From Shigella phage vB_SboM_Phaginator: 64,000 nucleotides of DNA. The position numbers and the translations under genes were made by a program. Numbering within the stretch: the first letter of the stretch is position 1; every line of letters starts with the position of its first letter. A model generated the notes under the pieces. That model had not been told where the DNA came from. It did no database searches and saw nothing but the letters and a program-made list of their open reading frames with translations. The DNA lies in sequence record OL615012, one strand, 5' to 3'. This document shows positions 3,886 to 8,126 of this stretch, piece after piece.

Positions 3886-4164
3886 TCAGAATGTAATTTC
3901 TAACCAATCACCATCACGTTGATCACTATTGACTTTAAAATTAAATCCTTCTTTTCTCAGCCAATCACCAATTTCTTCAGTAATCAATTTATCGCGAGCA
4001 GTACAATAATAACTAAAATATGTTTTACCTTGTTCAGCTGCTTTATTAGCAAGTTCTGAAAAATCTTTAATAAAACACTCTAGCTTAAACTGTTTACTTT
4101 TAAGTGCTTTTTCGCGTAATTGATTAGCAAAAGATTCATTTTCATAAAGATCATACTGTTCCAT
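3886..4164 (-). CDS. Hypothetical protein (T4 24.2-like position)
   Basis: 92-aa ORF in a tightly packed minus-strand operon; ATG start. Confidence 0.6.
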   Translation of the reverse strand: MEQYDLYENESFANQLREKALKSKQFKLECFIKDFSELANKAAEQGKTYFSYYCTARDKLITEEIGDWLRKEGFNFKVNSDQRDGDWLEITF

Positions 4165-4366
4165 TTTTCACCTTTTTATTGATATGTCTTTTTCTATAGA
4201 CAACTTTTTCTCGAGTTTCAAATTTATTCTTAGCAGTCATAGCTCGAGCCCATAATACAGCCACTTCTTTCGCCTGTAAGTTTAATTCACGAGCAATTTC
4301 AATGAATGACTTTCCAGACTCATGAAGAGTAAACACCACAACCTCAGTTCTCATAATCAATCTCAT
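4151..4366 (-). CDS. Hypothetical small basic protein (T4 24.3-like position)
   Basis: 71-aa ORF overlapping the downstream gene; basic C-terminus. Confidence 0.55.
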   Translation of the reverse strand: MRLIMRTEVVVFTLHESGKSFIEIARELNLQAKEVAVLWARAMTAKNKFETREKVVYRKRHINKKVKNGTV

Positions 4367-4455
4367 GTTATCGAGTTGGTGCCATTATATACATCATTTT
4401 CTGAGTGTGTTTTGTGTGCTTTCAAAATGAAGAAAGGGGCCGAAGCCCCTTACGA

Positions 4456-5874
4456 TTATGGATAGGTATAGATGATACCAGTTTCTAAAGCAGTTTTGTG
4501 AATGATGTATCCATTACGCGATTCTTGAACATCAACTTCTGGATAATCTTTCATCATTTTCTGAAGAGTGTAACGATGCAAGTAGTATTTACTATCTGGA
4601 TCTTCAGTTTTCCAATCTTTACCTTCTTCAGTCATTTTTTGTATTTCATCCATAACCCACCAACCGCACCAGATGTAAGCTGAAGTACGATGTGGAAGAG
4701 GATGAACATAAGGTAATTCACCTTCTGGTTCCGGAGCAACTTTATCAGTCACTTGAACTTGACCTTCTGCTGTAATAGTTTTGCTATCATAATCAGTAGC
4801 AGTAACAATTGCCGTAACTTCAATAGTTTGACTTCCAATAGATGAGGTATCAACGGTATATACATTAGTTGACCCTTCTACAGGAGAAGAATCTTTCTTC
4901 CATGAATAAGCAATTTGTGCTTCTTCTGGTGCATCAGTGACATTAGCAGTAAATGTGGCCGAAGCATCTTGCTGAACATTAATAGAAGGAGGAGTCAATG
5001 TAACCTGTGGATTCATTGTCTTCTTATTAACTGTTAATGATACTTCATTAGAAGTAACTTCCTTTTCATTGTAATTTTCAGCAGTTACTTGAGCTACACA
5101 TTTAATTCTTTTTACTCCACTTGTAGTTGGAGTATAGCTAAATGTAGAGTTAGTTTCTCCACCAACTTGTGAATCATCTACATACCACTGATACGTAGCA
5201 GATGCTCCATCAGGTTGAGAAGCTAAGGCAGCAGTAAATTGAACTGGGGTTCCAATTACTCCAGCTGAAGGACTATCGGGAGTTACTGCCAAAGTAGTTG
5301 TCTGCGTCTTTTTATTAACAGTCAGTGATACTTCATTAGAAGTAACGCTCAGTGCATCATAATTTGTCGCGGTTACTTGAGCTATGCACTTGATTTTTTT
5401 AACTCCGCTTGTGTCAGGAGTGTAATTGAATGTAGCGCTAGTCGCTTCGCTCACAGGAGAATCGTCAACGTACCATTGATACGTAGCGTTTGCGCCCGAT
5501 GGCTGCGAAGCTAAAGCGGCAGTAAATTCAACAGCTGTTCCGATTACTCCAGCGTCAGGGTTATTAGGAGTTACAGCTAAGGTAGTCGTTTGTGTCTTAT
5601 TTTGAACTGTGATAGTTGTTGTCGCTTCAGCCGTTTCCGGGCCTCCTTCAGAAAGTGTATTTGTTGCAACTACTTTAATAGTCTTTTGACCGGCAGGTCC
5701 TTTTAGTACATAACTAAAAGTTGCTTCAGCTCCATCTTGTGGAACATCATCTACAGTCCAAGCATAGGTAATAGTTCCACCTCCAGTTTCACCACTGGGT
5801 GTAGCAGTAAACTGCTGAGTCTGATCTATAACTCCAGTAGGTGTTTTAGGAGTTATATCAACTGTAAAAGCCAT
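4456..5874 (-). CDS. hoc: Highly immunogenic outer capsid protein Hoc, 4 Ig-like domains
   Basis: 472 aa, MAFTVDITPKTPTGVIDQTQQFTATPSG… and C-terminal …YIIHKTALETGIIYTYP match T4 Hoc as recalled; contains an extra tandem ~95-aa Ig-like unit. Confidence 0.9.
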   Translation of the reverse strand: MAFTVDITPKTPTGVIDQTQQFTATPSGETGGGTITYAWTVDDVPQDGAEATFSYVLKGPAGQKTIKVVATNTLSEGGPETAEATTTITVQNKTQTTTLAVTPNNPDAGVIGTAVEFTAALASQPSGANATYQWYVDDSPVSEATSATFNYTPDTSGVKKIKCIAQVTATNYDALSVTSNEVSLTVNKKTQTTTLAVTPDSPSAGVIGTPVQFTAALASQPDGASATYQWYVDDSQVGGETNSTFSYTPTTSGVKRIKCVAQVTAENYNEKEVTSNEVSLTVNKKTMNPQVTLTPPSINVQQDASATFTANVTDAPEEAQIAYSWKKDSSPVEGSTNVYTVDTSSIGSQTIEVTAIVTATDYDSKTITAEGQVQVTDKVAPEPEGELPYVHPLPHRTSAYIWCGWWVMDEIQKMTEEGKDWKTEDPDSKYYLHRYTLQKMMKDYPEVDVQESRNGYIIHKTALETGIIYTYP

Positions 5875-5883
5875 AAGTTATCC

Positions 5884-6564
5884 TTATTTTAATGTTACGA
5901 AAGAAGAATTGCGTGTTTCACGAATTAAAACTGATCCGTCACGGTTAATGTAATAAATTAAGCTAAATAAAGTTTGGTGTGCAGAAGCATGCTCAAAACT
6001 AGTTGGGTGAGATTTCCAATCAGGAGTTTCAGCAATCCATTGATAAATCCACCAAGGAACGGTACAAAATCCTGGATTTTTTCCTAATAGTTGAAGATTT
6101 GGACTAAAGTTTTCCGGAAGAGTAAATACAGACGGCTTTTCAGATTCAATAATCTCAGCTACAGCCTGTTCGAATTTTTCTTCAACAAAAGGAGTATCTT
6201 CAATCAAAACTGAGGTATTTTCAGGAATTTTATCAGTTTCTACTACTTCAATTTTAATGTCAGATTTAACCGGAGAATCAATCAGAAGTGCTGCTTCTGG
6301 ATTGACTTCTTCATCGTCATATTTTAACCCCTCTGCAGCATCAGCAGCATTGATTAAGTCTTTAATAGATAACCCATCAGTCTCTGGCATAGGTTCACTA
6401 GCGAGCTTCTGGAGGGCTTCTTCAATATCAACAACGATATTATCAAAAGATTTATTCTTTTTGACCTTTATACCAAACTGTTCAGCATATTCAGCTAATT
6501 TAGCTTTAGCTTCTTTGTTATCATCAAGAGCCTTCAGCTCTGCAATATAATCTTTATCTATCAT
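5884..6564 (-). CDS. inh: Inh-like protein (inhibitor of prohead protease)
   Basis: 226-aa ORF directly upstream of hoc, the position of T4 inh. Confidence 0.7.
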   Translation of the reverse strand: MIDKDYIAELKALDDNKEAKAKLAEYAEQFGIKVKKNKSFDNIVVDIEEALQKLASEPMPETDGLSIKDLINAADAAEGLKYDDEEVNPEAALLIDSPVKSDIKIEVVETDKIPENTSVLIEDTPFVEEKFEQAVAEIIESEKPSVFTLPENFSPNLQLLGKNPGFCTVPWWIYQWIAETPDWKSHPTSFEHASAHQTLFSLIYYINRDGSVLIRETRNSSFVTLK

Positions 6565-6577
6565 AATATTTCCTCAG

Positions 6578-6585
6578 TATAAATA
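6578..6585 (+). promoter_or_regulatory. Late promoter TATAAATA upstream of uvsW
   Basis: Exact TATAAATA about 30 bp upstream of the uvsW ATG. Confidence 0.5.
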
Positions 6586-6614
6586 TAGATATATTTATTA
6601 CATGGTATTTAGAC

Positions 6615-8126
6615 ATGACTGACATTAAAGTACATTTTTATGATTTTAGTCACGTGAGAATTGATTGTGAAGAAAGTACATTTCATGAACTCCGTGATTT
6701 CTTTAGCTTTGAAGCTGATGGGTATCGTTTTAATCCGAAGTACAGATATGGCCACTGGGATGGACGAATCCGTCTGTTAGATTATAATCGTCTTCTTCCA
6801 TTCGGCTTAGTCGGGCAAATTAAAAAGTTCTGTGATAACTTTGGCTATAAAGCCTGGATTGACCCACAAATTAACGAAAAAGAAGAATTATCAAGAAAAG
6901 ATTTTGATGAATGGCTTTCTAAATTAGAAATCTATTCAGGAAATAAAAGAATTGAACCGCACTGGTATCAAAAAGATGCAGTGTTCGAAGGATTAGTTAA
7001 TCGTCGTAGAATTCTTAATCTTCCAACATCCGCTGGTAAATCGTTAATTCAAGCTTTGCTTGCGCGATATTATTTGGAAAATTATGAAGGTAAAATTCTT
7101 ATCATTGTTCCAACAACTGCTCTAACAACTCAGATGGCTGATGACTTCGTTGACTATCGTTTATTCAGTCATGCAATGATAAAGAAAATTGGTGGCGGAG
7201 CATCAAAAGATGATAAATATAAAAATGATGCACCAGTCGTTGTTGGTACATGGCAAACTGTAGTAAAACAACCAAAAGAATGGTTCTCACAGTTTGGAAT
7301 GATGATGAATGATGAATGTCATCTTGCTACAGGAAAAAGTATTTCATCTATCATATCAGGTTTAAATAACTGCATGTTTAAATTTGGTCTATCAGGTTCA
7401 TTACGTGATGGCAAAGCTAATATCATGCAGTATGTTGGAATGTTTGGTGAAATATTTAAGCCAGTAACGACTTCTAAATTAATGGAAGATGGACAAGTAA
7501 CTGAGCTAAAAATTAATAGTATTTTTCTTCGCTATCCAGATGAGTTCACTACTAAATTAAAGGGAAAAACTTACCAAGAAGAAATAAAAATTATTACTGG
7601 GCTCAGTAAAAGAAATAAATGGATCGCTAAATTAGCTATTAAGCTTGCGCAAAAAGATGAAAACGCTTTTGTCATGTTTAAACACGTATCGCACGGTAAA
7701 GCTATTTTCGATTTAATTAAAAATGAATACGATAAAGTTTATTACGTATCAGGGGAAGTTGATACCGAAACACGCAACGTAATGAAAACCTTAGCTGAAA
7801 ACGGTAAAGGAATAATTATAGTAGCTAGTTATGGTGTATTTTCTACCGGTATTTCAGTTAAAAATCTGCATCACGTTGTTTTAGCACACGGTGTTAAATC
7901 TAAAATTATTGTATTGCAAACAATAGGTCGCGTATTACGTAAGCATGGTTCCAAAACAATCGCAACAGTCTGGGACCTCATAGATGATTGTGGTGTTAAG
8001 CCAAAATCTGCTAATACGAAAAAGAAATACGTTCATTTGAACTATCTTTTAAAACACGGCATTGATCGTATTCAGCGCTACGCAGATGAAAAATTTAATT
8101 ACGTAATGAAAACAGTTAATTTATAA
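6615..8126 (+). CDS. uvsW: UvsW DNA/RNA helicase
   Basis: 503 aa; helicase motifs (PTSAGKS Walker A, DECH box); sequence matches T4 UvsW as recalled; TATAAATA upstream. Confidence 0.95.
   Translation: MTDIKVHFYDFSHVRIDCEESTFHELRDFFSFEADGYRFNPKYRYGHWDGRIRLLDYNRLLPFGLVGQIKKFCDNFGYKAWIDPQINEKEELSRKDFDEWLSKLEIYSGNKRIEPHWYQKDAVFEGLVNRRRILNLPTSAGKSLIQALLARYYLENYEGKILIIVPTTALTTQMADDFVDYRLFSHAMIKKIGGGASKDDKYKNDAPVVVGTWQTVVKQPKEWFSQFGMMMNDECHLATGKSISSIISGLNNCMFKFGLSGSLRDGKANIMQYVGMFGEIFKPVTTSKLMEDGQVTELKINSIFLRYPDEFTTKLKGKTYQEEIKIITGLSKRNKWIAKLAIKLAQKDENAFVMFKHVSHGKAIFDLIKNEYDKVYYVSGEVDTETRNVMKTLAENGKGIIIVASYGVFSTGISVKNLHHVVLAHGVKSKIIVLQTIGRVLRKHGSKTIATVWDLIDDCGVKPKSANTKKKYVHLNYLLKHGIDRIQRYADEKFNYVMKTVNL

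Follow-up and report, generated by a model that had tools for sequence, protein, structure and literature searches.

An ordinary two-unit hoc allele with four predicted Ig-like domains in Shigella phage vB_SboM_Phaginator

T4 Hoc is in wide use for displaying antigens and in studies of mucus adherence, nearly all of this work with its 376-aa form. It is a monomeric fibre of 180 Å, present at 155 copies per head, one per gp23* hexamer; its C-terminal domain sits at the hexamer centres and the protein is dispensable for growth (PMC10385173). The number of Ig-like domains in Hoc homologues ranges from one to ten, with 10 in the 1174-aa Hoc of Serratia phage Muldoon (PMC10385173). In the Hoc of phage phiPNJ-6, MUC2 binding maps to E29 and G33 of domain 1; as isolated domains, 2 and 3 gave negative co-IP results with MUC2, a finding for one phage and one ligand (PMC11150434). 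A D246N exchange in domain 3 of T4 Hoc changes how tightly fucosylated glycans are bound (PMC9271167). The GenBank record of the RB30 hoc gene (AY101183) carries a repeat_region note according to which an 'intragenic repeat led to appearance of additional immunoglobulin-like domain'. In the literature searched, we found only general statements on variable Hoc domain number and no explicit description of the 472-aa form or of a unit series.

We analysed a stretch of 64,000 nucleotides of the phage genome (OL615012; hereafter the window), the first 20 kb of which is ~97% identical to phage RB27, a Tequatrovirus. The hoc CDS lies on the minus strand at 4456..5874 and encodes the head outer capsid decoration protein (472 aa plus stop). 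This product matches PHROG 1149 ('Hoc-like head decoration', E=1e-138) and, in a phmmer search, the T4 Hoc chains in the PDB (E=9e-223; best stretch, residues 189–472 against T4 93–376). Apart from the insertion described below, 92% of its residues agree with T4 Hoc. Full-length identity is 95–97% to the Hoc proteins of RB27, RB30 and vB_EcoM_FT, and 96.8% to the closest database match. On the minus strand, inh is located upstream of hoc and homologues of T4 24.3, 24.2 and rnlB downstream, and uvsW diverges on the plus strand; T4 has the same arrangement, except that segE is absent here. The product of 4456–5874 is Hoc, namely the RB30/RB27-type two-unit allele, and it shows every defining feature that could be tested.

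Some further features of the locus deserve mention. Directly 3' of the hoc stop codon, at 4434..4451 on the minus strand, a consensus scan predicts a GC-rich hairpin (AAGGGGCTTCGGCCCCTT) followed by a T-run, which looks like an intrinsic terminator. The spacer between inh (5884–6564, minus strand) and uvsW (6615–8126, plus strand) is 50 nt long (6565–6614) and contains no segE. At the segE site, T4 has this 618-nt homing-endonuclease gene and phage FJ1 also has a homing endonuclease; the variable presence of segE right beside hoc could drive co-conversion of hoc alleles. The 24.3 homologue (4151–4366, minus strand) is a 71-aa ORF, compared with 56 aa (171 nt) in T4, probably because the mechanical ORF caller picked an upstream in-frame start.

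The middle of hoc is a tandem repeat. Tandem Repeats Finder detects one array at 5018–5598 (period 288, 2.0 copies, 74% matches, score 640), and a second repeat search places the copies at 5018–5305 and 5306–5593 with 74% identity. Counted directly, the two in-frame units, residues 92–187 and 188–283, are identical at 212/288 nt and 73/96 aa (74% DNA, 76% protein). Identity in 2000 codon shuffles averaged 30% (sd 2.6%) and never exceeded 38%, which puts the repeat far outside chance expectation. Alignment with T4 Hoc opens one clean gap of exactly 96 residues. These results agree with an earlier note on this DNA, which had described two consecutive units of ~95 aa and about 75% identity (96 aa each by our count) in a 472-aa Hoc, compared with 376 aa in T4; the ORF and the T4 annotation confirm both lengths. 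The span 5029–5601, where that note placed an extra domain, corresponds exactly to residues 92–282. Its direct repeat of ~285 bp is present as a tandem repeat, but its period comes to 288 bp, and hoc is read from the minus strand. The origin of the extra domain in an in-frame tandem repeat is supported by the repeat detection, the single 96-residue gap relative to T4 and the model and fold matches given below.

We then examined the domain architecture, from the fibre tip to the capsid (all coordinates on the minus strand). Ig-like domain 1 (residues 1–91; 5602..5874) would form the distal tip and carries E29 and G33; it is all-beta in the AF2 model (pLDDT about 87–94), and the Pfam profile search of Hoc gave no family above cut-off in this domain. 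Repeat unit A (residues 92–187; 5314..5601), placed by repeat detection and modelled at pLDDT 92–96, is Ig/PKD-like and extra relative to the T4 domain 2 core; the second stretches of the Pfam PKD, BiPBP_C and Ig_2 matches fall there. Repeat unit B (residues 188–283; 5026..5313) is also Ig/PKD-like, matches the T4 domain 2 core and contains the best stretch of the Pfam PKD match (residues 195–267). The capsid-adjacent Ig-like domain (residues 284–378; 4741..5025) is equivalent to T4 domain 3, aligning with T4 residues 188–282, and is modelled as all-beta at pLDDT 85–94; the Pfam Ig_3 and I-set matches at residues 289–373 are weak, both below their cut-offs. The domain at the C-terminus that binds the capsid (residues 379–472; 4459..4740) is near-identical to T4 Hoc 283–376 and matches PHROG 21694 (E=1e-41). 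Its T4 counterpart has on-capsid structures in the PDB (5vf3, 8t1x and others), and its identification rests on sequence identity to this solved domain and not on the model, where pLDDT falls below 50 and the 32-sequence alignment is shallow.

For the whole protein, the Pfam PKD family (PF00801) scores 43.7 bits over two stretches against a cut-off of 23.5. Other families above cut-off are PKD_4 (33.0; cut-off 27), BiPBP_C (31.1; 26.8) and PKD_3 (27.3; 26.3), while Ig_3, Ig_2 and I-set remain below. The AF2 model, built on the 32-sequence alignment, has four all-beta domains over residues 1–377 with pLDDT mostly 85–96. Its best Foldseek matches in the PDB are four-Ig ectodomains, i.e. Dscam Ig1–4, Sidekick Ig1–4 and ICAM-5 D1–D4 (E about 1e-12). 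The domain prediction that the earlier note had proposed as a check, in which a count of three Ig folds would have spoken against it, returns four beta-sandwich domains (by AF2 and Foldseek, with partial coverage by Pfam). Pfam (for units A and B), AF2, Foldseek and identity to T4 together support its claim of four Ig-like domains plus a capsid-binding C-terminus, and the predicted architecture has one more Ig-like domain than that of T4.

How common this form is was assessed by tblastn against 50,697 phage records. Many full-length 472-aa matches were found at 93–97% identity, including RB27, RB30 and PP01, and the closest relatives of the window (these three and others) all have the 472-aa form. 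The 535 records matched by the full-length query at ≥80% coverage were not taken as the census, since joined pieces enter that count and a 376-aa Hoc already spans ~80% of the query. We used instead a 36-aa junction peptide that bridges two adjacent units and is present only in proteins with at least two units (E≤1e-6), and took as denominator the records matching domain 3 and the C-terminal half at ≥80% identity, below which there is a clean gap. Full-length matches to the junction peptide occur in 243 of the 607 records with a T4-type C-terminal half, or about 40%, a count that includes GenBank/RefSeq duplicates and is biased by isolation towards E. coli and Shigella phages. As controls, the best match in T4 (E=3e-5) fails the cut-off, and the true junctions are recovered in RB30 (1), mobillu (1), OMNI12 (2) and FJ1 (3), all at E≤5e-10. 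The junction occurs at 273 places in the 243 records, so at most about 30 records have three or four units.

Hoc lengths were also compared across relatives, as the earlier note had advised, and reveal alleles of 376, 472, 568 and 664 aa, i.e. with one to four units. Among the best 120 protein clusters in a large database, 82 have 376–378 aa, 30 have 468–472 aa and eight have 568–570 aa. OMNI12 Hoc (L005, OL362041, 991–2697) has 568 aa and three units, and FJ1 Hoc (L004, MZ170040, 991–2985), annotated just as a hypothetical protein, has 664 aa and four units. The rarity that the earlier note had implied for a four-domain Hoc is contradicted, since ~40% of Tequatrovirus-type records have at least two units, hence four or more Ig-like domains, and the RB30 repeat was already annotated; the outcome it had named as undoing its claim, that four-domain Hoc proteins are the common form in this phage group, largely holds (243/607, about 40%). 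The four-Ig Hoc of this phage is real, but known and ordinary. Judged by its sequence, the window holds a new variant of a known and common form. The only mildly new part, the series of one to four units with its mosaicism, emerged from the sequences used for comparison, not from the window.

The survey also brought up irregularities in public records. Hoc proteins are named inconsistently or wrongly, e.g. 'endonuclease [Shigella sonnei]' (P0017), 'baseplate wedge subunit' (FP43), 'capsid whiskers protein', 'capsid and scaffold protein' and 'PKD domain protein', and several T4-like contigs of 165–170 kb are deposited as assemblies of Escherichia coli or Shigella sonnei. A 472-aa Hoc of Tequatrovirus type (~93.6% identity) is present in two genomes labelled as Mosigvirus, mobillu (MN850622, L002, 1501–2919) and OZ035759, pointing to inter-generic exchange or else to a wrong genus label.

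We next compared the units themselves. In the window, units A and B differ by dS=1.37 and dN=0.16 (Nei–Gojobori; dN/dS=0.12); the high dS marks an old split and the low dN/dS constraint on both copies, so that A and B are ancient paralogues, both under purifying selection. Across phages, orthologous units share 86–99% DNA identity compared with 74–84% for paralogous units within one genome. Unit A shows 86–94% DNA identity with the units in first position in RB30, mobillu, FJ1 and OMNI12 and only 74% with unit B, and unit B is 90% identical to the single T4 unit, with zero mismatches across unit nt 72–180. By position, A-type units come first, followed by types B, D (B-like; our label) and C. 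The order is A-B in the window, RB30 and mobillu, A-D-C in OMNI12 and A-B-D-C in FJ1, and the A-first order holds in 31/32 two-unit and 8/8 three-unit forms. Single-unit Hoc proteins of 376 aa are of A-type in 46 clusters, B-type in 34 and C-type in three. Another 472-aa Hoc (P0045) has a very divergent second unit at residues 188–283 (KKAQTTTLAVTPASPAAVEIGTATTFTANVSNQP...), ~55% identical to both A and B, which looks like a fifth unit type and was probably imported from a more distant phage.

The single T4 unit (T4 locus L003, 2188–3318, compared with window 5026–5601) is mosaic in the order A|B|A: nt 1–36 equal RB30 unit A, nt 72–180 equal unit B of the window and the last ~70 nt are again A-type. 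A simple deletion joining the 5' part of A to the 3' part of B was considered as the origin of this unit and rejected: the 5' switch fits, but the 3' end reverts to A-type, so a single crossover is insufficient. For the non-repeat backbone (domain 1, domain 3 and C-terminus; 280 aa), compared among protein cluster representatives and not as a full phylogeny, proteins ≤3% different include forms with one, two and three units. Nearest neighbours share unit number in 72% of cases compared with 53% under permutation, a modest phylogenetic signal. The scatter of unit number across near-identical backbones, together with the mosaicism, indicates that units have probably been gained, lost and exchanged repeatedly by recombination.

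Taken as a whole, 4456–5874 is almost certainly an ordinary two-unit (472-aa) hoc allele of an RB27-like Tequatrovirus, in which two tandem units, A and B, occupy the T4 domain 2 position and hence give four Ig-like domains. The units are tandem, in frame and clearly homologous, as a recent lineage-specific duplication producing a novel four-Ig Hoc would leave them. However, dS between the copies is near saturation, each copy has same-position orthologues in other phages (at the 86–94% DNA identity given above), and the junction is common to 243 phage records, with the RB30 annotation predating this work; given the dS of 1.37 and the orthologous units elsewhere, we reject this origin as very improbable. 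Mis-assembly of a repeat that inflates hoc has still less claim, close to none: the general risk that tandem repeats carry speaks for it, but an assembler could not collapse or expand copies that differ at 76/288 positions, the frame is intact and the 472-aa architecture recurs in hundreds of independently sequenced genomes. The 26% divergence of the copies and this recurrence led us to reject it as well. Alternatively, the A-B array may have formed when already diverged single-unit alleles of A- and B-type from co-infecting phages were joined by unequal or illegitimate recombination, the divergence of 26% then predating the join. The existence of single-unit A-, B- and C-type proteins, the pervasive mosaicism and the scatter of unit number across backbones are consistent with such a join, which we regard as possible rather than probable: single-unit alleles are equally explained as deletion products of longer arrays, and the strict A-first order fits an old ordered array as well. 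In a wider reading, which we regard as possible but at less than even odds, the middle of Tequatrovirus Hoc would be a recombination-driven cassette array of one to four units drawn from at least four ancient types (A, B, D and C) in fixed order, repeatedly gained and lost on near-identical backbones, with fibre length a polymorphic trait held by selection in differing mucosal or surface environments.

What the extra unit does can be considered within the two-unit reading of the window. Hoc would act as a monomeric fibre, with its C-terminal domain bound at the gp23* hexamer centre and its Ig-like string projecting outward. The position of T4 domain 2, viewed as a small cassette array of one to four units from at least four old types, is here filled by two Ig/PKD-like units of 96 residues, A then B. 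Homologous or unequal recombination, both among the 288-bp units and among the alleles of co-infecting phages, would change unit number. Carbohydrate binding is common in Ig/PKD-like domains, and this favours the view that the additional unit adds a binding site (a new ligand specificity or higher avidity) instead of a spacer. So do the purifying selection on both copies and the clustering of unit differences in a few segments (e.g. unit residues 48–63 and 77–85) that could be surface loops. Nevertheless, in phiPNJ-6 Hoc MUC2 was bound by domain 1 and not by isolated domain 2 (PMC11150434), and the sole other mapped determinant lies in domain 3 (PMC9271167), which makes an added binding site unlikely. 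Because the published glycan-binding determinants map to domains 1 and 3, the extra unit is probably mainly a spacer that moves the tip domain away from the capsid. It would add about one Ig domain of length, from 180 Å in T4 to an estimated 220–225 Å; we infer both this length and the spacer role. The protein has both E29 and G33, whereas T4 has Q29, and the counterpart of T4 D246 in the alignment is D342. A longer fibre might plausibly alter adherence to mucus or surfaces, as the earlier note had proposed, and units of the domain 2 type could bind another target, e.g. bacterial surfaces.

The window itself adds little, being a common and already annotated Hoc allele, and the wider pattern is of modest practical value. 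About 40% of sequenced close relatives would carry a longer fibre, compared with the 376-aa form used in nearly all of the Hoc work on antigen display and mucus adherence. If the cassette-array reading is true, the series of 376, 472, 568 and 664 aa is a ready-made set for relating fibre length to mucus adherence.

Among known systems, the closest are the Hoc proteins of RB30 (AY101183, AAM52483) and RB27 (KM607000/NC_025448), which also have 472 aa and are 95–96% identical over their full length. They share with the window the two-unit array, its position and the flanking genes, and differ from it by point differences at 4–5% of residues; e.g. AENYNEKEV in the tail of unit B here corresponds to ADDYNAKEV in RB30. 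The RB30 record (L001, 1173–1445) counts the capsid-binding region at the C-terminus as a fifth immunoglobulin-like domain, while later structural work describes this Hoc domain as alpha/beta and not Ig-like (PMC10385173). T4 Hoc (376 aa; NP_049793; PDB 5vf3, 8t1x, 8t9r) shares the gene and locus, and its domain 1, domain 3 and capsid-binding domain are about 92% identical overall to those of the window. Its single middle domain matches unit B across the core. T4 differs in having one middle unit, the A|B|A mosaic, instead of two, in having Q29 instead of E29, and in carrying segE between inh and uvsW. The longer Tequatrovirus alleles of 568 aa (UGKSEcP1/2, OMNI12) and 664 aa (vB_EcoM_FJ1) have the same backbone, the same family of 96-aa units and an A-type first unit, but OMNI12 (A-D-C) and FJ1 (A-B-D-C) have three or four units and so five or six Ig-like domains. 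More distantly, the Hoc proteins of RB49 and Serratia phage Muldoon likewise combine a C-terminal capsid anchor with a variable string of Ig-like domains (PMC10385173). RB49 Hoc is only ~22% identical to that of T4 (PMC10385173), and the arrays of both phages differ from the A, B, C and D units described here.
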